Shown: positions 5,938-46,113 of the stretch, one piece after another
How the letters are laid out: each line of letters starts with the position of its first letter
Numbering within the stretch: the stretch's first letter is position 1
Source of the DNA: Candidatus Cloacimonadales bacterium
GTDB lineage: Bacteria; Cloacimonadota; Cloacimonadia; Cloacimonadales; JAIOQZ01
NCBI GenBank assembly: GCA_963665815.1
Contig: OY762463.1
Span: forward strand, 1,376,001 to 1,440,000
Direction: 5' to 3'
DNA: 64,000 bases
Translations under genes and position numbers: made by a program
The notes under the pieces: model-generated
What the model saw: only the letters and a program-made list of their open reading frames with translations
What the model was told of the DNA's origin: nothing
The model's database searches: none

Positions 5938-6118
5938 AAATAACTCCTTTATTCTAAAAAATAATGTAATATTATGGCTAAACAAATAAAAAATTATACT
6001 GACTCATAAAGCATGTCTTAAATTTTGAATCATGACTCAGAATGGATTAATATAATCTGAAACTTGGATTTACGGTAATTTCTTGACATCTGAAAGCAAT
6101 AATGAAATTGATGCATTA

Positions 6119-6207
6119 TCGCCGAATAGTGTTACCTAAACATTTGCATGGAGCACTATCGATAGGGTTGTTCTGGAAACGGAACTGCCTCCCGTTTGGA
6201 AAGGCGA
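6119..6207 (+). ncRNA. Moco/Tuco (molybdenum/tungsten cofactor) riboswitch candidate, short form lacking P3
   Basis: P1 TCGCC(6119-23)/GGCGA(6203-07); P2 ATAGTGTT/AGCACTAT enclosing the CCTAA..ATGG tetraloop receptor; AGGGT junction; P4 GTTCTG-GAAA-CGGAAC; 3' hallmark GCCTCCCGTTTGGAAAGG, as in moaA leaders. TTGACA at 6083-6088. Confidence 0.85.
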
Positions 6208-6269
6208 GGAAGAAATAACGTACAATTCGTATCTTTCTTGCCTTCAAAAAAATATTTTTTGGAGGATTA

Positions 6270-8099
6270 ATGAAAAAATTAAATCTTTTACTTTTAACGG
6301 CGTTACTTATGTTTATGCTTGCAATAGGTGCATGCAGCGAAGACGACAATGATGATAACAATAATGATGTTGTTGTTGAACCGACTTTTACTTTTACTAT
6401 GCCTGACAGCTCAGAACTCGCAATAAGCTTTATAGCTTCAGTTGTTGATTATGACGGTACAGATGTAACAGGTTATTCACTTGATCAATTTATTCCGGAA
6501 GATCCTTACGATCTTGAAATCTCCAGAGCTGTTGGCGATGATATTTTTGATGATGATGTGAGAAATCTTTTTGTTTACGAACTGCTTGGCGAAGATGGTT
6601 TTACACCTTATGAAAACGGTGAAAAACATCTTGCCTGGGAAGTATTCAAAACAGGATACTTTCTTCCAACTGAAAAATCCAAGGCATTCTTTGCAGATGA
6701 AGAAATTGTTAAAGCATATAATGTGAGATACTTGGATAAGTTTAACCTTTACAGAGCTTTCAGAGTCTCTAAAATGGATATAGAAACAACATTCTTAACA
6801 GGTGCATATTCAAATTCAAATGTTTCTTTCACTGATAGAAAAGATAATGCCGTAACCTACGAAGGCTTTAAACTTGAAGATATGATTAATCCTGATGTAA
6901 CAACCACTCCTGAGAACTACACTTACTACGTTGGTGCTGTTGACGGCTGGATTAATGACGATACAAACAACACATTCACATGGGCACAAATGCAGAATGC
7001 TTATTTCTTCCCTGAAGAAAACAGAGTATGCTTCATTGAAAACGGTACAGAAGTTTTCAAACCTGTAAAAAGCCCATACTCCATTGAACTTACCGAAACA
7101 AACCCTCCAAGTATTGCTGCCCCAACAGATCTTACTGTAAACACAGATTCAGACATCGTTCTTTCATGGACTGATAACAGTGACAACGAAACAGGTTTCA
7201 CAATTGAAAGAAAATACGATTCCGAAGATGCTTTTGTAGCTGTTGACAGCGTAGATGCCAATGTAACAACCTATACTGATACTAATGCAGATTTTGCTCA
7301 GCAAATTAAATACAGAGTCGCTGCACACAATTCAGAAGAAATGTCCTACTATACTAATGAAGTTACTTTAGATGCTTCAGCTACTCCACCAGCTCTGGCG
7401 GACACGACTAAAATCGCTGTTCAATTTGAGCTTGATTTCACAGATTTGTCTTCTTACACTTCAGAAACAATCACTGTTGAAGGTGCAGATGTAACTGCTT
7501 ATAAACTTGACCAGTTTATTGATCAGTCTGAAGTAACAGCTCTCTACGGTGAAGACGGTGTAGACTGTAGAGCATTCTACTGTTACCATCTTGTCGCTGC
7601 TGACAGCTGGTCACCAAGAGACAAAGATAACAGAGACCTTACATGGGCTGAATTCAGTTCAGGTTACTGGCTTGAAGGTGATCAGAAAGCTTACTTCCCA
7701 TCAGAGGATATTTCAAGACAGTTTGATGTGGGAGATCTTAAATATGTTAATCTTTATAACACAATAAACATCTCTGATGCAGATGGTAACCTCATCACTC
7801 CATTTGAATACTTGGGAGCTGAAACACAAAGCATTACTTATATTCACCATGAAGAAGAATACACAGAAGATGCTGTTCCTTTGACATCAATCATTACATC
7901 TTACGTTACAACTGACCCTGCAAGCTATACTTACGATTTTGCAGCAGCAGACGGTTGGGAAACAGATCCTGTAACTTGGGAAAACATGCAGAAAGGTTAC
8001 TGGCTTGTTAATGCAAACAAAGCTGTATTCATTGATGCAGCCGGAAATCAGGTTATTACCGGAATCAAAAGCGTTGTAGGAATTCAGTTAATACAGTAA
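6270..8099 (+). CDS. Acidic lipoprotein with duplicated molybdopterin-binding-like domain pairs separated by an FN3 domain
   Basis: Lipobox AIGAC; FN3 motif LSWTDNSDNETGFTIERK; internal duplication (GYSLDQFI / AYKLDQFI) and four 'a-D-G/S-W/F...TW' units. Confidence 0.7.
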   Translation: MKKLNLLLLTALLMFMLAIGACSEDDNDDNNNDVVVEPTFTFTMPDSSELAISFIASVVDYDGTDVTGYSLDQFIPEDPYDLEISRAVGDDIFDDDVRNLFVYELLGEDGFTPYENGEKHLAWEVFKTGYFLPTEKSKAFFADEEIVKAYNVRYLDKFNLYRAFRVSKMDIETTFLTGAYSNSNVSFTDRKDNAVTYEGFKLEDMINPDVTTTPENYTYYVGAVDGWINDDTNNTFTWAQMQNAYFFPEENRVCFIENGTEVFKPVKSPYSIELTETNPPSIAAPTDLTVNTDSDIVLSWTDNSDNETGFTIERKYDSEDAFVAVDSVDANVTTYTDTNADFAQQIKYRVAAHNSEEMSYYTNEVTLDASATPPALADTTKIAVQFELDFTDLSSYTSETITVEGADVTAYKLDQFIDQSEVTALYGEDGVDCRAFYCYHLVAADSWSPRDKDNRDLTWAEFSSGYWLEGDQKAYFPSEDISRQFDVGDLKYVNLYNTINISDADGNLITPFEYLGAETQSITYIHHEEEYTEDAVPLTSIITSYVTTDPASYTYDFAAADGWETDPVTWENMQKGYWLVNANKAVFIDAAGNQVITGIKSVVGIQLIQ

Positions 8100-8100
8100 A

Positions 8101-8631
8101 ATGTTCAAAAAAAAACTCAAAACAATAGATATATTATATATTGCTGTTTTTGCAGCTTTAGGACTGGCGGTTAAACCAATCGTCAGTCCTCTTAACAAAC
8201 TGGTACCAATCCCCGGAGGTTCGCTTGCCGGTGGATTCTATATGATGTGGATGGCTATTGCCGTTGCTTGTGTCAAAAGATTCGGAACCGGATTGCTTTT
8301 CGGAGTAGTGCAAATGCTTGTTGTATTATCAATTGGCTTCTTCGGCAATCATGGATTAGTATCTTTGATCACATACACCCTCCCAGGACTGGTTATGGAC
8401 ATTGCAGGATTGTTCATGAAAACAGGAAAAAGTCCGGTTGAACAAGTTATTCTGTGCACAACAGGAAATATGACAGGTGCAGCAATCGTGGCATTTCTGG
8501 TTATGCGACTTGCAATGATACCTCTGATGATTTCACTTACCGCTGCTGCTGTTTCCGGAATAATTGGTGGACTGACATCATATTACATATTGAAACAACT
8601 ACAAAAATACGAACTTATGCAGGAATTATGA
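8101..8631 (+). CDS. ECF transporter substrate-specific S component
   Basis: 176 aa with about 6 TMs, N-terminal DILYIAVFAAL (AxxxA motif) and KRFGTG loop; lies in an operon with ecfA/A'/T. Confidence 0.85.
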   Translation: MFKKKLKTIDILYIAVFAALGLAVKPIVSPLNKLVPIPGGSLAGGFYMMWMAIAVACVKRFGTGLLFGVVQMLVVLSIGFFGNHGLVSLITYTLPGLVMDIAGLFMKTGKSPVEQVILCTTGNMTGAAIVAFLVMRLAMIPLMISLTAAAVSGIIGGLTSYYILKQLQKYELMQEL

Positions 8632-9527
8632 AAAAAATAATTATCTTATTAACTATAATGGCTGTTTTTATGAATATTGCCGCCTTAAAGGTAGGAAGCA
8701 AAGAATATTCTCTCGAAGCATTGAAAAAACTTGATCAGCAGAAAGTCAAAACAGAATATGAGAAAAGAGGTGAACTTAGAAAGAACACCTGGAGTGGCAT
8801 ACCTGTGAAACTTTTATTGAAAGAATCCGACATCTGGAAAGATAACTCTGAATTCGTGTTTCAGTCTGCTGACAACTATCTTGTAAGACTCAATTCGGAA
8901 GATCTACCATCTGACAAAGCAATAATCGCACTGACAAAAGATGGAGAAGAACTTGATGAAGAACATATCAGGCTTATTGTTAAGGACATGAGAGATATGT
9001 TCTGGATTCGTGGAATAGCAAAAATTTCAAGAACAGAACCCAATGAGATTCAATTACCGGAATATGTATTTAATGGAGAAAATTTCATTAAGATCTATAA
9101 TTTTGACAATGATCCCGGTAAGTTTAAAAACGATGAAGGCTATAAGCTTGCTGATTTTCTGAACAAAGCATTTCCATCAACTGAAGGTGAATTTACAATC
9201 TTCGGAAAAGATGGTGTTAATCACACACTGGATTTCGATCAATTTCTTAAAAATGCCCGAATCCTTAAAGATGAAAAGTCATTTTCACTCAAAAGTGAAG
9301 ATATGCCAGGTGGAATGTGGATTAAGAATCTGATATGCGTATTCCGAAACAATCGCGTTATATTCTTCACAACTAACTATGAAGAAGTAGAATCTGTATT
9401 TGCGAAAATCTTTGACAATAAGAAATTGGAATACAAAATCTATATGAATCTTGAAAACTCAGAAATCAATATTGATAAAGGTGAAGAAGCAGAATTATGG
9501 AAAAACGCTTTATTGTTCCGACAATAG
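8628..9527 (+). CDS. Secreted protein with two sulfite-oxidase-type molybdopterin-binding-like domains
   Basis: Start reassigned to MKKIII (ATGA overlap with the S-component stop). Motifs WSGIPVKLLL, FQSADNY, IIAL.KDGEEL, IRLIV, WIRGI; second copy GYKLADFL..GKDG..WIKNL. Confidence 0.7.
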   Translation: MKKIIILLTIMAVFMNIAALKVGSKEYSLEALKKLDQQKVKTEYEKRGELRKNTWSGIPVKLLLKESDIWKDNSEFVFQSADNYLVRLNSEDLPSDKAIIALTKDGEELDEEHIRLIVKDMRDMFWIRGIAKISRTEPNEIQLPEYVFNGENFIKIYNFDNDPGKFKNDEGYKLADFLNKAFPSTEGEFTIFGKDGVNHTLDFDQFLKNARILKDEKSFSLKSEDMPGGMWIKNLICVFRNNRVIFFTTNYEEVESVFAKIFDNKKLEYKIYMNLENSEINIDKGEEAELWKNALLFRQ

Positions 9528-10768
9528 CAGTAATTATTCTTGTACTTGTATCTGGATGCGGAAATAAAAATCTAAGAATCAACGGCAATCTTGATACCAG
9601 AATAATCATTTCCGAGAGTATACAGCTTAATGATGCTCTTAAAAGAGAAAGATTTGAGAACATACTTATTGAAGGCGACAACGGCGTTGCTGCATTAATT
9701 TCAGCAGATACTGCCAGAGAAATCGCAATTGAGAGATTAGAAAAAGGTTTTTCAGCTGATTCTGATGGGTTACCTCCTGTATGTAACATCAATAATATCT
9801 CAAGCATTTCAGTATATGCATCCTGTTACGATTACGAGATCAGATTTTTTGATGGGATAAATGAAATAGAGCGTCTCACTCCATTCAATTATATGATGAA
9901 AGAATTTGATTTTCTTGGAGAGTCCAGTAAAAATGGACATTCTGCCAGAAAATTCAAACGCAAATCGGATTATCTTCATAACTGGATGAAAGAAGATTCT
10001 ATTCTCGTCATAACTGAAAAAGAGACTAACAAAATACTGCAAAAACCAGAGTTCGAGGAGATTATCTTTGATGGTAAACAATTAGTTTATAATAATGAAA
10101 GAATAATTGGGCTATGGGCTAATCCTCCTCTCAGAATGGAGCAACTTACCGGTATCTTTGAGGATTCACTTGTTAACAGTAATTTAATGGTGATTTTCAT
10201 CGATGGTCTCGGAGTAAAATATATTGATCAGAACTCAGAAGCTGTAAAACTATTTACTGAAGACTATACTTTCAGTCCTCTGCTTTCAGCATACCCATCT
10301 AAGACAAAAAAAAATAGCTGGGTCATGATGTCTGGGAAAGATCATAAGCTTGAGGGAAGAAAAGTTCTGGAAGAATTTGAGGTTCACGAATCAATACTTG
10401 TTGAAGGAGATCATGTTTACAACACATCAGCTATTCCTATGATCCAATGTACTGATATGGATAAAGACGGATTCATTGATGAAGAGATTTTTGAAGCTGC
10501 TCGAGAGGCAGTCAAAAAGAAACCTGATTTTCTGATAGTACATTTCCACTCATTTGATGATTTTGGTCATGAAACAGGGGCATATTCTCCTGAAAGAGAT
10601 TCCATTCTTGCATTGAATTACAAATATGTTAAATCATTAACAGATAACTGGAATGGTAAAGTGATGCTTGTATCAGATCATGGAATGCACACAAAATCTA
10701 ATGGTAAAGGAACGCATGGAAGCCTTATGCTGGATGACATGTTGGCAATAAAAGGAGAAACAAAATGA
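9497..10768 (+). CDS. Lipoprotein with C-terminal alkaline phosphatase / nucleotide pyrophosphatase superfamily domain
   Basis: Lipobox VSGC; metal-ligand motifs FIDGLG, YPSKT, HSFDDFGH, SDHG and THG. Confidence 0.8.
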   Translation: MEKRFIVPTIAVIILVLVSGCGNKNLRINGNLDTRIIISESIQLNDALKRERFENILIEGDNGVAALISADTAREIAIERLEKGFSADSDGLPPVCNINNISSISVYASCYDYEIRFFDGINEIERLTPFNYMMKEFDFLGESSKNGHSARKFKRKSDYLHNWMKEDSILVITEKETNKILQKPEFEEIIFDGKQLVYNNERIIGLWANPPLRMEQLTGIFEDSLVNSNLMVIFIDGLGVKYIDQNSEAVKLFTEDYTFSPLLSAYPSKTKKNSWVMMSGKDHKLEGRKVLEEFEVHESILVEGDHVYNTSAIPMIQCTDMDKDGFIDEEIFEAAREAVKKKPDFLIVHFHSFDDFGHETGAYSPERDSILALNYKYVKSLTDNWNGKVMLVSDHGMHTKSNGKGTHGSLMLDDMLAIKGETK

Positions 10769-11166
10769 AATACATTATTGGTATACTTGTAGCTTTGATA
10801 TTACTTTTAACAGCACTGATTATGTACAAACAATCAGAGAAACTTGTTGATCTTGGTACCAGAATTCACTTTGATAAATACTATGCTCAAATGCAGAATA
10901 TCAAATCTGAAAAAGTTTCTTACAACGCTAAAGAATTAGAAGTTATCAAAGTTAATGATGTGCTTGGTTTATTCGAAGTAGACAAAAAAGGATTATCTTC
11001 CATCACATTCTTTGCCAATGATGGAGGTTCTTTGAAAGTTGATTCAAACGAACTGGATAACCTTTATTTACAGGCTATGGAAAACGGAACTTACAGACTT
11101 GTTATTCCGAGTGATCAATTTAAACAAAGATGGCTTAAAAACATTGCAAGTATAGAATGCCAGTAA
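10765..11166 (+). CDS. Membrane-anchored protein with one molybdopterin-binding-like domain
   Basis: N-terminal TM; FFANDGG, YRLVIPSD and RWLKNIASIE resemble the C-terminal half of the Oxidored_molyb fold. Confidence 0.6.
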   Translation: MKYIIGILVALILLLTALIMYKQSEKLVDLGTRIHFDKYYAQMQNIKSEKVSYNAKELEVIKVNDVLGLFEVDKKGLSSITFFANDGGSLKVDSNELDNLYLQAMENGTYRLVIPSDQFKQRWLKNIASIECQ

Positions 11167-11167
11167 A

Positions 11168-11833
11168 ATGTCATTGATCAGTATTTCCAATCTCAATTTC
11201 CGCTACAACCTTTCCGGAAATCATATTATACGTAACTTTTCAGCAGAATTGGAAAAGGGGAAAATTTATGGAATTTCAGGAGAGAGCGGTTCGGGAAAAT
11301 CTACTTTGTTAAAGCTTATTAGTGGAATTATACCGGAATACTTCAACGGAATCGTAGAAGGAATAGTAAAACTGGCAGATAAACCTGTTAAAGAATATGA
11401 ATCTTTCAATCTTGGTAAGACTCTGCAATTCGTTATGCAGGAACCTGATCATCAGTTGTTTCTGCCAACCGTACTGGATGAACTAATATTCAGCAGTGAA
11501 AACTACTCCTTTTCAAGAGAACAGATTCAGCAGAATCTAAACAGAGTATTAAATATATTTCCACTACAGGACTTTCTGAACACCTATACTAACAAATTGT
11601 CGTATGGCACCAAAAGACTGGTTAACATAGCATCAGCAGAGATGATAAGACCGGATATTATTATCATTGATGAACCTTTCAGTGGATTGTCAGGTAAAAT
11701 GATCACACTGCTTAAGAAGTTCTTCCTGCAGATTAAGTCTGATAACAGAACAGTGATACTGACAGATCATCATATTGAGAATGAAAATATATGTGATACC
11801 GTATTCTCCCCCGAAGATTTCTGTAAGGAATGA
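11168..11833 (+). CDS. ecfA: ECF transporter ATPase (A component)
   Basis: GESGSGKST, Q-loop MQEPDHQLFLPTVLDELIF typical of EcfA/CbiO, LSYG, IIDEP. Confidence 0.88.
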   Translation: MSLISISNLNFRYNLSGNHIIRNFSAELEKGKIYGISGESGSGKSTLLKLISGIIPEYFNGIVEGIVKLADKPVKEYESFNLGKTLQFVMQEPDHQLFLPTVLDELIFSSENYSFSREQIQQNLNRVLNIFPLQDFLNTYTNKLSYGTKRLVNIASAEMIRPDIIIIDEPFSGLSGKMITLLKKFFLQIKSDNRTVILTDHHIENENICDTVFSPEDFCKE

Positions 11834-12459
11834 TTATGCTCAGAATAAGCAACCTTTCATGCGGATTCAAAGATAAACTTTTACTTAAAAACAGCAAATT
11901 AACGGCTGAACCTGGCAATATAATCAGGATTTCAGGAGATAACGGTATAGGTAAATCAACCTTTCTGCAATGCCTTATAGGGCTGCACGAAGCTTCCGAT
12001 GGTACAGTAATACTCAATTCAACTGATCTGCTTAACTCTCCTACTGAAAAATGTGCAGAAACTGTTTTCTACCAGAGACAGAAGCCCTATGACAATGTGC
12101 TGTTCACGACACCATTACAGGAAATGTGCTTTTTTACAGATCAGAACAAAGCTGAAGGCATACTGAAGAAATATAACCTTTATGAAGTTCGGAACTCACC
12201 TGTATGGAATCTCAGTTACGGGCAGGTAAAGAGAATCACTTTTAGTGTCATGGACACAATGAATAAAGAGCTGTATTTACTTGACGAGCCTTTTGCAGGT
12301 CTCGACAGAACCAATGCCGAAATTGTTGCTTCATCTGTTGATCAACTGGCTGGTAACGGAAAAATAGTAATTATTATAAGTCACAACGATAAAATTTGTT
12401 CTAACCTTAACGCAATAAAATTTGAAATAAGAAACAGGCAATTCATTGCTGTTGAATAG
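11830..12459 (+). CDS. ECF transporter ATPase (A' component)
   Basis: GDNGIGKST, LSYGQVKR, LLDEP, ISH. Confidence 0.85.
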   Translation: MIMLRISNLSCGFKDKLLLKNSKLTAEPGNIIRISGDNGIGKSTFLQCLIGLHEASDGTVILNSTDLLNSPTEKCAETVFYQRQKPYDNVLFTTPLQEMCFFTDQNKAEGILKKYNLYEVRNSPVWNLSYGQVKRITFSVMDTMNKELYLLDEPFAGLDRTNAEIVASSVDQLAGNGKIVIIISHNDKICSNLNAIKFEIRNRQFIAVE

Positions 12460-12469
12460 AGGATATTAA

Positions 12470-14419
12470 ATGAAAAAACATGTAATTTTTGTGTGTATCT
12501 TTCTGATTACCTGTATGTTAGTTGCAGAAGATAACCAGAAAAAACCTGAATACGAAATGCAATATGTAAATGAGGATTCTACAAAACTTGTTAAAGTATA
12601 CAAAATGGAGAGCATCCGGGTTGTCGAAGCTAAATCAAAATCCAGCTTCAGTAAGCCTGTTATTAAAACGATCCCTGAAAATGAGAGTCCCAAAGACTTA
12701 CAGGCAGCAGATCTGCTTGAAGACATCAATGGTGTTGAACTGCAGACCGGAGGAAAAGACGGTCAACATATCAGCATCCGTGGTTTCAAACAATCTCAGA
12801 TCAAGATACTTGTTGATGGCAGACCTTATGGAAGCGGATACTTCGCGAACATAGATCTGAGTACAATTCCAGTCTCTGAGATTAAGGAAGTAAGAGTTAT
12901 AAAAGGGCCTGTAGCATCAGTATATGGTTCTGACACCATGGGCGGAGTTGTAAATATTATTACTAAATCTCCAGATGATAAGAAATGGGGTAATGTTGGA
13001 GTAATAGTTAAAAGAAATGTCACTAACAAGGAGTATATCTCTGTGTCCCACGATTTTGACTCATTTGATTTCTGGGTGTATGGCAGCAGAAATCAGAGAA
13101 CAGGATTCATGCTGTCTGAAGACTTTGAACCGACTCCGAATGAAAATGGTAATGTAAGAAATAACATGGATTCCGAACAATATGACTTCATGTCAAAATT
13201 TAATTACGAAGCAACTGAGAAACTCAATCTTGGATTAGATGCAAGCTTTTCCTATGCTGCAGACAAAGAGATTCCTTCCAGTATAGATGATAAACTATAC
13301 AGAAAATTCACAGATGTAAAAAGATTTCAGGAATCAGTTTTTGCAAAATATATGGTAAACGACTACTGGATATGTGATTTCAACAGTTATTTTGACTACA
13401 ATGAAGACAGCTATGCTGAGTACAGTGATGAAGATCTGACTGATATGAATTCCAGCTGGCCATCAAAACTGAAACACTCTACGCTTGGTTTTACACAGAA
13501 CAATACTTACACAATGCTGAATGAAAATGTTATAGCTTTTGGATTCCGTTTCGAGAACCAGACTTACAATCGAAAAGGTGGAACTAATTACGAAGACTGG
13601 GTTTCCAATAATTACTCTTACATTAACGGATTCCTCCAGTACACTCATAAGATTTCTGATTTCAGAATTATTGGAGGCACAGGAGTTTCCATGTTTACTC
13701 TTAACGATGAATTTGATTTCAATACTCATTTCGAACCGTCAATTTCCGTTAACTATTCTACTCAGAAAACGGAGAATTCAATAAGCTATGCAATAAATAC
13801 AAAATTTCCATCCCTGCAAAACCTTTACGGCAGTTCAAGCGGGAATGAAGATTTGACTGAGCAGAAAGCTCATAGAGCAGAATATTCATTCAGCTATTCA
13901 GATGTTATTAATACAGGTTCAGTAAGTGTCCCTGTGAACTATTCCACACAAGTTTTTTATAACAGGATTGAGGATGAGATTCAGGAAATAAATAACACAT
14001 ATGAAAATGTATCAGAATATGAGTCTTACGGTTTTGATTCAAGCCTGAAGTTTAAGCTTCTTACTTCTCACACAATAGAATACTCATTTCTTAAACTGCA
14101 TGACAGCCCGAAAGAGCTTCCGATTCCATCGAGAAACTCGGTAAAAGTTGTGGAGTCATATGAGTTTGAACCAATCAGAGATATGAAAGCTTCTGTTTTC
14201 GGTGAGTTTCAATACAAGGATATCGTAACAGACTTTGACTATGATGTTGTGGATGTAATCTCTCCATATTGGATTCTTAACTCAGGATTTAACACAAAGT
14301 TCCTGCAATACAAATTTTCATTTGAAGTTGAGAATATCCTGGATACAGACTATGAAACAAGAATCGGCTATCCAATGCCGGGAATCAACTACATATTGTC
14401 TATGGAGTACTCGTTTTAA
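12470..14419 (+). CDS. TonB-dependent outer-membrane receptor
   Basis: Signal peptide; plug motifs ISIRG, ILVDGRP, VIKGPVASVYGSDTMGGVVNIIT; C-terminal ENILD..Y...GYPMPG and terminal Phe (YSF). Confidence 0.93.
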   Translation: MKKHVIFVCIFLITCMLVAEDNQKKPEYEMQYVNEDSTKLVKVYKMESIRVVEAKSKSSFSKPVIKTIPENESPKDLQAADLLEDINGVELQTGGKDGQHISIRGFKQSQIKILVDGRPYGSGYFANIDLSTIPVSEIKEVRVIKGPVASVYGSDTMGGVVNIITKSPDDKKWGNVGVIVKRNVTNKEYISVSHDFDSFDFWVYGSRNQRTGFMLSEDFEPTPNENGNVRNNMDSEQYDFMSKFNYEATEKLNLGLDASFSYAADKEIPSSIDDKLYRKFTDVKRFQESVFAKYMVNDYWICDFNSYFDYNEDSYAEYSDEDLTDMNSSWPSKLKHSTLGFTQNNTYTMLNENVIAFGFRFENQTYNRKGGTNYEDWVSNNYSYINGFLQYTHKISDFRIIGGTGVSMFTLNDEFDFNTHFEPSISVNYSTQKTENSISYAINTKFPSLQNLYGSSSGNEDLTEQKAHRAEYSFSYSDVINTGSVSVPVNYSTQVFYNRIEDEIQEINNTYENVSEYESYGFDSSLKFKLLTSHTIEYSFLKLHDSPKELPIPSRNSVKVVESYEFEPIRDMKASVFGEFQYKDIVTDFDYDVVDVISPYWILNSGFNTKFLQYKFSFEVENILDTDYETRIGYPMPGINYILSMEYSF

Positions 14420-14421
14420 CA

Positions 14422-15153
14422 ATGAAATCTCTGGATGTACGCACAAAAATATCTCTGGTAATGCTGGTTACATCACTATCGGTAATATATCAGAATCTTA
14501 TACTGCAGTCGGTTCTGCTGGCTGCAGCGTTTCTGCTTGTATTGCTTCTTGCTGAGACGAGAGAAGGACGCAAAGGAATGAGTCCTTTCAGAATGTTAAA
14601 GACTATTACTATTATCTTCTTTGCCCAAATATTTTTCAGGCAAACAGGAGACATCCTGTTTCAATACTCGTTTATAAAAATCACAACTGACGGACTCGTC
14701 TATGCAGGGAGTTCCACCAGTCGTCTTCTGATTATCTTCATGTCTGCTAAGATCCTGTTTGGTGTTCCTTTAACCGAGTTTGTCATAGCCTTTCGTAAAT
14801 GGAAGATTCCTTATGTAATCTCGTTTATGGTAGCAATGGTAATTCACCTGATTCCGGATTTCAGTCATAAAGTAAGAAATAAAATGGAACTGCTCAAAAT
14901 CCGTGGTCATGCCTTCGGTTCCATGTCTCTCTCAGAGAAGATTAAGATAATCTCAAGAATCATTGTCCCGATTGTAGGCGAAGCACTCTCTCAGGCACGC
15001 TACAGAGTTGTATCTCTGGAAATGCGAGGATTTCACAGCTCCGGTAGACGCACCTACTTTAAAGACAAATCACTCTCCCCTATTGACTATGCTATTCAGA
15101 TTCCTGTTCTTGTTGTGTTTGTGGCTGGGATTGTCGGAGGTTTTCAAATGTAA
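14422..15153 (+). CDS. ecfT: ECF transporter transmembrane T component
   Basis: LDVRTKI N-terminus, TM helices and two conserved xRG motifs (KIRG, EMRGF). Confidence 0.9.
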   Translation: MKSLDVRTKISLVMLVTSLSVIYQNLILQSVLLAAAFLLVLLLAETREGRKGMSPFRMLKTITIIFFAQIFFRQTGDILFQYSFIKITTDGLVYAGSSTSRLLIIFMSAKILFGVPLTEFVIAFRKWKIPYVISFMVAMVIHLIPDFSHKVRNKMELLKIRGHAFGSMSLSEKIKIISRIIVPIVGEALSQARYRVVSLEMRGFHSSGRRTYFKDKSLSPIDYAIQIPVLVVFVAGIVGGFQM

Positions 15154-45944: not shown

Positions 45945-46019
45945 TCCTGAGTAGCTCAGTGGTAGAGCAGTTGGCTGTTAACCAATTTGTCGGGGGTTCA
46001 AATCCCTCCTCAGGAGCCA
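45945..46019 (+). tRNA. tRNA-Asn(GTT)
   Basis: Acceptor TCCTGAG/CTCAGGA, D arm GCTC/GAGC, anticodon loop CTGTTAA, T loop TTCAAAT, encoded CCA. TTGACA upstream at 45899. Confidence 0.97.
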
Positions 46020-46038: not shown

Positions 46039-46113
46039 TCCTGAGTAGCTCAGTGGTAGAGCAGTTGGCTGTTAACCAATTTGTCGGGGGTTCAAATCCC
46101 TCCTCAGGAGCCA
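46039..46113 (+). tRNA. tRNA-Asn(GTT), identical second copy
   Basis: Identical 75 nt sequence after a 19 bp spacer. Confidence 0.97.

Follow-up and report, generated by a model that had tools for sequence, protein, structure and literature searches.

A riboswitch-headed operon of Cloacimonadota encoding cysteine-less sulfite oxidase-like domains, a candidate pathway for uptake of a molybdenum/tungsten pterin cofactor

The stretch of DNA analyzed here ("the window") comprises 64,000 nucleotides of the genome of a Candidatus Cloacimonadales bacterium (assembly GCA_963665815.1, contig OY762463.1, positions 1,376,001 to 1,440,000 of the forward strand). We read the segment from 6108 to 15153 on its plus strand as a single operon, in which a riboswitch of the molybdenum cofactor (Moco) class is predicted to precede genes for a 609-amino-acid (aa) lipoprotein, the S component of an energy-coupling factor (ECF) transporter, a secreted 299-aa protein (p299), a 423-aa lipoprotein, a membrane-anchored protein (p133), the ATPases EcfA and EcfA', a TonB-dependent receptor, and the T component EcfT (Table 1). 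The genes adjoin or overlap by a few bases, and the first gene 3' of the operon lies on the opposite strand. With an S component (PF09819), a T component (PF02361), and two ABC_tran ATPases, the operon holds a complete group I-type ECF module. The combination of a TonB receptor, an ECF transporter, and a series of periplasmic carriers in one operon is unusual. We focus on the exported proteins, which contain small units resembling sulfite oxidase (SUOX) domains and the pterin-binding protein PruR, and on the substrate that such a system might import.

Table 1. Features of the operon, in positions of the window
Feature	Position	Strand	Evidence
Moco/tungsten cofactor (Tuco) riboswitch aptamer RF01055, P3-less	6108..6222	+	61.6 bits (gathering score 36), E 2.2e-12
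Predicted expression platform: anti-P1 segment (6233-6245) and ribosome-binding site hairpin	6223..6269	+	RNA folding
609-aa lipoprotein, four SUOX/PruR-like units in two pairs, fibronectin type III (FN3)-like linker	6270..8099	+	lipobox ...AIGAC, profiles, model
Lipoprotein unit 1, residues 36-160 (predicted)	6375..6749	+	hhalign to unit 2 of same family; aligns with p299 unit 1
Lipoprotein unit 2, residues 161-277	6750..7100	+	structure comparison of model
FN3-like linker	7101..7379	+	fn3 22.6 bits, below cut-off 25
Lipoprotein unit 3, residues ∼371-500	7380..7769	+	half-to-half alignment; boundary with unit 4 approximate
Lipoprotein unit 4, residues ∼501-609	7770..8096	+	half-to-half alignment
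ECF S component, 176 aa	8101..8631	+	Pfam ABC_cobalt PF09819, 32.4 bits (cut-off 25.2)
p299, secreted 299-aa protein, two SUOX/PruR-like units and ∼50-aa tail	8628..9527	+	Pfam, profiles, model
p299 unit 1, residues 18-140, best-preserved unit	8679..9047	+	PF00174 30.4 bits; structure match
p299 unit 2, residues 141-250 (predicted)	9048..9377	+	hhalign to other units
423-aa lipoprotein, conserved N-domain and C-terminal phosphodiesterase/nucleotide-pyrophosphatase-type domain	9497..10768	+	lipobox ...VSGC; PF01663 45.9 bits
N-domain of 423-aa protein, possible eighth unit	9560..9979	+	hhalign to p299 unit 2, weak
Alkaline-phosphatase-superfamily phosphodiesterase domain	10169..10765	+	PF01663 48.6 bits on slice
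p133, N-terminal membrane anchor and one SUOX/PruR-like unit (residues 28-133, 10846-11163)	10765..11166	+	hhalign
EcfA ATPase	11168..11833	+	ABC_tran 86.5 bits; best NCBIfam ECF_ATPase_1 121 bits, below its cut-off
Second ABC ATPase (EcfA')	11830..12459	+	ABC_tran 74.9 bits
TonB-dependent outer-membrane receptor, 649 aa	12470..14419	+	Plug 69.7 bits
ECF T component	14422..15153	+	CbiQ PF02361, 60.5 bits

The initial annotation of this DNA had proposed that one repeat unit occurs four times in the 609-aa lipoprotein, twice in the protein at 8628-9527, and once in that at 10765-11166, an arrangement confirmed by alignment of the lipoprotein halves and by profile comparison with hhalign. Compared directly, the halves of the lipoprotein (residues 36-277 and 371-609) were 30% identical over 227 columns (E 1e-31). 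The repeats of this protein surfaced only in such direct comparison or with profiles: all-against-all BLASTP of five proteins gave chance-level matches only and left the internal repeats unseen, and Pfam returned no match in either the lipoprotein or p133. As for the FN3 domain that had been placed between the two pairs, an FN3-like linker is indeed found there, but its Pfam fn3 score (22.6 bits, E 1.2e-4) stays just under the cut-off of 25. Numerous FN3 proteins also dominated the homologue search with the whole lipoprotein, from which only two full-length relatives (80 to 82% identity) were recovered. A HMMER search with one half yielded 90 cluster representatives; because most of these are ∼270 aa long, the size of one pair, the single pair seems to be the usual form and the window copy a duplicated pair. 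The half-family alignment (A2, 67 rows) combined the window's two halves with 65 of the 90 representatives, picked by eye (mostly ∼230 to 330 aa with a long match); among the 25 not used were the cluster of the window itself, short fragments, and longer multidomain proteins.

Profile comparison linked all seven units. Within A2, unit 1 matched unit 2 with an hhalign probability of 99% (E 6e-18, 95 columns). Lipoprotein unit 2 matched p133 (91%, E 9e-7) and p299 unit 2 (40%, E 3e-4), and p299 unit 1 matched p133 (89%, E 2.6e-6) and its own neighboring unit (51%, E 1.5e-4). When whole families were compared, the p299 family (A1) was hit by the p133 family (alignment A3) at 97% (E 1.7e-11) and by A2 at 88% (E 2.8e-6), with lipoprotein unit 1 aligned to p299 unit 1.

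The sole unit above a Pfam threshold lies in p299, the start of which was set at 8628 because its relatives align from MKK: residues 40 to 136 matched Oxidored_molyb (PF00174) with 30.4 bits (cut-off 24), a family matched by none of the 67 A2 members. Against PDB sequences, the A1 profile found SorA sulfite dehydrogenase (E 0.0024) and two PruR entries (E 0.025 and 0.059); the A2 profile found signal peptides only, and p299 unit 1 as a single-sequence query gave nothing informative. Residues 15 to 136 of the p299 model (pLDDT 87.9) were compared with known structures by VIA-align. Unit 1 matched SoxC (Z 16.7), sulfite oxidases (Z 12 to 16.5), and PruR (Z 14.4 to 15.3) with 114 to 127 residues aligned (PruR, 114 to 117 at an rmsd of 2.2 to 2.3); the top 33 rows were all of the SUOX fold, and the next row had a Z of 3.6. 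In the model of the lipoprotein N-terminal half (pLDDT 95.1), the matching region was residues ∼126 to 242, the second unit, which scored Z 10.4 to SoxC (2xts), Z 10.0 to PruR 7kom (106 aligned, rmsd 2.8), and Z 9.4 to 10 over the PruR entries. Here the top 27 rows (Z 10.4 to 6.0) were SUOX-fold except for rank 8 (9a64, an integrative model), with Z falling to ∼5 from row 28. Foldseek on the lipoprotein model placed PruR and YedY in the top rows at weak E values (best, 0.014), and the usable scores are those of VIA-align. The sulfite oxidase-like fold suggested by the initial annotation was thus borne out by Pfam for p299 unit 1 and by the models of p299 unit 1 and lipoprotein unit 2, while the other units were assigned to it by profile comparison only.

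The units share the fold of the Moco-binding domain with SUOX-family enzymes (SorA, SoxC, chicken sulfite oxidase, and YedY/MsrP; PF00174), but differ from them in having no Mo-ligating Cys, no twin-arginine translocation (Tat) signal, and no dimerization or heme domains, at about half the size (∼110 to 125 aa versus at least 260 aa in the matched enzymes). No column with at least 50% Cys was present in A1 (17 sequences) or in the p133 family alignment A6 (36 sequences), and in A2 only the lipobox Cys was conserved (63 of 67). A Tat-like RRx motif occurred in 0 of 17 (A1), 1 of 67 (A2), and 0 of 36 (A6) sequences. Export signals were read with the lipobox and leader consensus, which gave lipoboxes (AIGAC and VSGC) for the two lipoproteins, a Sec-type signal for p299, and a signal anchor for p133. 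Both the lack of a conserved Mo-ligating Cys and the use of Sec or lipoprotein signals in place of Tat had been noted in the initial annotation and held in these family alignments. Periplasmic SUOX-family enzymes are exported by Tat as cofactor-loaded proteins. From sequence, the units described here read as nonenzymatic domains that would be exported unfolded. Although p299 unit 1 exceeds the Oxidored_molyb threshold, it is scarcely credible that the units work as catalytic molybdoenzymes in the periplasm, whether of the MsrP/YedY or the sulfite dehydrogenase type, given the missing Cys and Tat motif, their small size, and the lack of any redox partner gene in the operon by Pfam; a catalytic SUOX enzyme was set aside on account of the Cys.

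The solved structures of PruR, a protein of Agrobacterium and other Proteobacteria (7kou, 7kos, 7kom, 7kp2, and 7rkb), offer a precedent, as they show a pterin bound by a SUOX fold without the Cys; like the units, PruR is small, secreted or lipidated, and noncatalytic. According to the parts of the PruR study concerned with this site, SUOX enzymes hold Moco via a conserved Cys that is replaced in PruR, and the PruR pterin site, equivalent to the Moco site, places the pterin between Tyr and Trp with a hydrogen bond from Asn (Y104, W160, and N102 in A. tumefaciens) (PMC11194511). In the profile alignment to 7kp2, p299 residues D82 and Y84 fell on the Asn and Tyr of L-N-x-Y, with Asp in place of Asn. 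Both are invariant (17 of 17), and W126 (16 of 17) would be the equivalent of the sandwich Trp; in p299 unit 2, D195 and W231 are invariant. The DG(W/F/Y) motif of the initial annotation corresponds to this Asn/Tyr position, and its Asp is present in every unit of the window, whereas the aromatic residue two positions later is found in five of eight. PruR differs in consisting of one domain, in signaling to a DcpA-type cyclase/phosphodiesterase, and in binding small pterins, and its sequence similarity to the p299 family is marginal (profile E 0.025). In the window, the units are multiplied (four, two, one, and perhaps one more) over four exported proteins and are encoded within an operon of transporter genes that is headed by a Moco/Tuco riboswitch; Pfam detected no DcpA-type partner (GGDEF/EAL with a periplasmic loop) among the nine operon proteins.

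The N-domain (∼150 aa) of the 423-aa phosphodiesterase lipoprotein is possibly an eighth unit, weakly indicated by hhalign matches to p299 unit 2 (59%, E 9.5e-5) and to the whole of A1 (24%, E 8e-4); an Atlas feature search with this domain (0.79 to 0.80) is a lead only. The PF01663 match of the C-terminal domain (45.9 bits, cut-off 23) covers only profile positions 147 to 229 of 342. Besides the lipobox, the N-domain family (A4, 29 rows) has two semiconserved Cys in the motif LPxVCNIxNLxEIC (24 of 29 and 20 of 29), of which the window copy retains the first only.

The RF01055 alignment at the head of the operon showed the P3 stem to be deleted. In the account of this RNA class by Regulski et al. 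(2008), as far as it treats such variants, P3-less Moco RNAs track tungsten-cofactor metabolism (PMC2408646). When the full leader was folded, the 3' strand of P1 paired with 6233-6245 and the GGAGG ribosome-binding site was free, whereas in 6223-6285 folded alone, CCUUC paired with GGAGG. This suggests a translational OFF switch in which, once P1 has formed, CCUUC would sequester GGAGG. RF01055 was the only Rfam class to reach its gathering score in the operon region, where no cobalamin or thiamine pyrophosphate (TPP) riboswitch was detected; the two remaining matches in the window were tRNAs near 46 kb. The same genome contains three further RF01055 copies, all P3-less (716557-716678, +; 2877215-2877337, −; 2623925-2624041, +), two of which precede NAD-type aldehyde dehydrogenases (PF00171) and one a tungsten-type aldehyde ferredoxin oxidoreductase (AOR) gene. 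The placement of these copies looks as if aldehyde oxidation were switched, depending on the cofactor, between a pterin-dependent and a pterin-independent route. The riboswitch-associated AOR gene is followed, at L008:3380-11271, by a ThiF-family gene and then by four genes whose products (261, 861, 855, and 324 aa) begin with a hydrophobic leader and matched nothing in Pfam. In Syntrophomonas wolfei, two P3-less Moco RNAs precede genes annotated as putative sulfite oxidases in the relevant part of the same survey (PMC2408646), and these might be carrier-type SUOX domains as described here.

To judge from its gene content, the host is unable to make its own cofactor, yet it uses pterin enzymes. 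The genome (one contig of 3,963,599 bp, 98.66% complete) has six Mo/W enzyme genes, namely, three of the AOR family, two of the xanthine dehydrogenase family, and one encoding the alpha subunit of a formate dehydrogenase (793.6 bits, above its cut-off). No match to MoaC, MoaE, the MoaA C-domain, or MoeA_N was found in it; the MoaC, MoaE, MoaA, and MoeA searches were each positive in 11 of 14 control genomes, and MoaD was not searched for. The single genome match to MoCF_biosynth (MogA/MoeA-type) was CinA (389.1 bits, above its cut-off). In contrast to these early steps, the genome retains MobA-like and DVU_1551/MocA-type nucleoside triphosphate transferase proteins (195 and 191 aa) and an XdhC-family maturation factor. 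Such a pattern, with early synthesis and metal insertion missing and late tailoring and insertion kept, is the one expected for salvage of metal-loaded molybdopterin.

Metal supply was considered as well. ModA/WtpA and TupA presumably belong to the PBP_like_2/SBP_bac_11 Pfam families, the sole match to which was PstS, adjoining PstC. In a genome with no ModA/TupA/WtpA-type binding protein some metal route would be needed, and the operon could import tungstate or molybdate, free or chelated, with the SUOX-like units binding the oxyanion or the chelate. Chelates are the typical cargo of TonB receptors. Moreover, Moco riboswitches often control molybdate transporters (PMC2408646). However, metal alone would be useless without matches to MoaA, MoaC, MoaE, and MoeA, and the SUOX fold is known for holding pterin, not free oxyanion. 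Most ECF transporters with dedicated S components serve for vitamins or cofactors, and some for Co and Ni. We therefore regard metal import as improbable, and uptake of metal only was set aside since there is no pathway to use it.

A scan for p299 relatives, with one genome per species, recovered 49 loci, 45 of them from Cloacimonadota, three labeled "uncultured bacterium," and one from an Armatimonadota bin; many are cut by contig ends. The S component, the N-domain protein, and p133 were present in 45, 44, and 41 loci, respectively, and the two ATPases in 43 and 40; the lipoprotein, EcfT, and the TonB receptor were recovered less often (31, 29, and 28 loci). Gene order was colinear in 47 of 49. 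Of the 14 loci searched for RF01055, 9 had it directly 5' of the lipoprotein gene. Four Cloacimonadales loci (L051, L054, L055, and L056) have a reduced operon, in which the S component, p299, a short N-domain protein, p133, and two ATPases are followed by tRNAs; no lipoprotein, receptor, EcfT, or RF01055 was found in the 20-kb stretch around each, and the short N-domain protein of L055 had no phmmer match.

Across 202 Cloacimonadota genomes at least 80% complete, p299 was present in 138 (40 of 60 genera), AOR in 147, MoaC in 14, and MoeA in 12. The 147 genomes with AOR divided into 123 with p299 but without MoaC, 9 with MoaC but without p299, 2 with both, and 13 with neither. For comparison, 40 of the 55 genomes without AOR had neither p299 nor MoaC, while 12 had p299 only and 2 MoaC only. 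All 12 MoeA genomes also had MoaC, and only one of them had p299. Across the phylum, the operon and de novo synthesis thus almost exclude each other.

Taken together, these results make it probable, if well short of certain, that the operon is a scavenging pathway for metal-loaded molybdopterin, the pterin-based Mo/W cofactor, in a bacterium that does not produce it. The context thereby supports the proposal of the initial annotation that an enzyme fold has been repurposed for noncatalytic cofactor carriers, which would be exported empty and loaded outside. Observed were the SUOX-like folds and their lack of the Cys, the riboswitch, the arrangement of the genes, and the gene repertoires of genome and phylum; from these we infer ligand binding, the chemical form of the ligand, the locations of the proteins, and the order of hand-off from receptor to S component. 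The metal-loaded form is favored because MoeA and MogA were not found. In such a pathway, the riboswitch, of the tungsten-cofactor type, would shut down translation once the cell's supply of cofactor is sufficient. The four-unit, Cys-less lipoprotein would capture the cofactor extracellularly or at the outer membrane, and the TonB-dependent receptor would carry it into the periplasm, where p299, the N-domain lipoprotein, and membrane-anchored p133 would hold the labile compound. The nucleotide-pyrophosphatase-type domain, which this genome has fused to the N-domain, may cut molybdopterin guanine or cytosine dinucleotide (MGD/MCD) back to the mononucleotide form. The dedicated ECF transporter (S, T, A, and A') would then import the cofactor, and cytoplasmic MobA-, MocA-, and XdhC-like proteins would finish it and insert it into enzymes of the AOR, formate dehydrogenase, and xanthine dehydrogenase types.

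The kind of system, riboswitch-controlled scavenging through a TonB receptor and an ECF importer, is known; the proposed substrate and the carrier fold are new. Diderms take up B12 through the receptor BtuB with the surface lipoprotein BtuG, and ECF-CbrT imports it. B12-type scavenging follows the same logic, with a riboswitch for the imported cofactor, a TonB receptor, capture lipoproteins, and an ECF importer, but differs from the operon in substrate class and binding fold. Caenorhabditis elegans and Moco-auxotrophic nematodes likewise take finished Moco, including the protein-bound form, from other organisms; these are animals, for which no transporter is known.

Several observations weigh against the proposed cofactor scavenging. 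Binding and transport of the cofactor by the operon proteins are predictions from fold and context. In three of the eight units, the residue two positions beyond the conserved Asp is not aromatic. Five of the 14 loci searched had no RF01055 at the gathering score, four of these being the reduced operons. The phosphodiesterase domain, fused to the N-domain in only 12 of 44 loci, is not essential to the pathway. In the phylum survey, 13 genomes had AOR with neither p299 nor MoaC, 12 had p299 without AOR, and 3 had both p299 and MoaC; because related genomes are not independent and many bins are incomplete, the survey gives patterns, not statistics. The MobA-, MocA-, and XdhC-like proteins all score under their NCBIfam cut-offs, and a hidden, nonorthologous biosynthesis route is possible instead of salvage.

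The pocket itself also counts against import of the entire cofactor. In the section of the PruR study dealing with ligand size, the pocket is truncated and takes small pterins, not Moco (PMC11194511); the units are PruR-sized, so that the whole cofactor may not fit. With PruR as the closest small relative, the operon could instead import another pterin or an earlier intermediate, such as metal-free molybdopterin, cyclic pyranopterin monophosphate (cPMP), neopterin, or monapterin. Of the intermediates, cPMP is the most stable. However, the genome offers no MoaE match for conversion of cPMP and no MoeA/MogA match for metal insertion, the riboswitch class senses Moco/Tuco rather than small pterins, and the phyletic link is to Mo/W enzymes, which makes this alternative unlikely.

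Likewise, the top NCBIfam matches of the TonB receptor were BtuB and heme receptors, far under their cut-offs (110.6 versus 599.7). They would fit uptake of an unrelated nutrient, such as a corrinoid, heme, or a thiamine precursor, with the SUOX-like units as generic binding or scaffold modules, and PF09819 presumably includes thiamine-related S components. Besides the low receptor scores and the absence of a cobalamin or TPP riboswitch from the operon region, this explanation leaves the co-occurrence with AOR and the exclusion of MoaC and MoeA unexplained, and we consider it very improbable; B12 or heme uptake was set aside for want of a matching riboswitch and of receptor scores near the cut-off.

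In the literature searched, no bacterial Moco importer or salvage system was found, only nematode work and general reviews. Moco is generally regarded as a cofactor that each cell has to synthesize on its own (PMC9026282). Peng et al. (2018), in the portion of their study on this topic, described several hundred organisms that have orphan molybdoproteins but lack a complete Moco pathway and, in most cases, a Mo transporter as well, and suggested unknown biosynthetic components or Mo-independent forms (PMC6147048). A Cloacimonadota pangenome preprint mentions AOR, and the terms "molybd," "tungst," and "cofactor" are absent from its text. The chances seem to us evenly balanced that the operon represents the first dedicated bacterial importer of a finished W/Mo-pterin cofactor, with a relay of Cys-less SUOX carriers from the surface to the ECF transporter, and that most Cloacimonadota are auxotrophs fed by their neighbors. 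For the orphan-molybdoprotein puzzle, the operon offers a concrete answer open to laboratory tests, as it names candidate carriers, receptor, importer, and regulatory RNA, and if cofactor scavenging is correct, the other organisms concerned could be explained likewise. A major group in anaerobic digesters would then depend on community-supplied W/Mo cofactor, and the carriers would be natural proteins that stabilize a notoriously labile cofactor.

A distant relative of the pair-type lipoprotein is encoded directly 5' of a TonB receptor gene on a metagenome contig (L079:4927-12648), and an identical protein is assigned to Spirochaetota. A metagenome scan with this relative gave five loci, with RF01055 in none of the three searched. 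Near the relative in L079, where no RF01055 was found, lies a regulator gene with HTH_17 and PBP_like domains, an architecture that we take to be that of tungstate-responsive TunR regulators. Finally, the two tRNA genes of the window are located at 45945-46016 and 46039-46110, 23 bases apart, with Rfam scores of 72.1 bits each.

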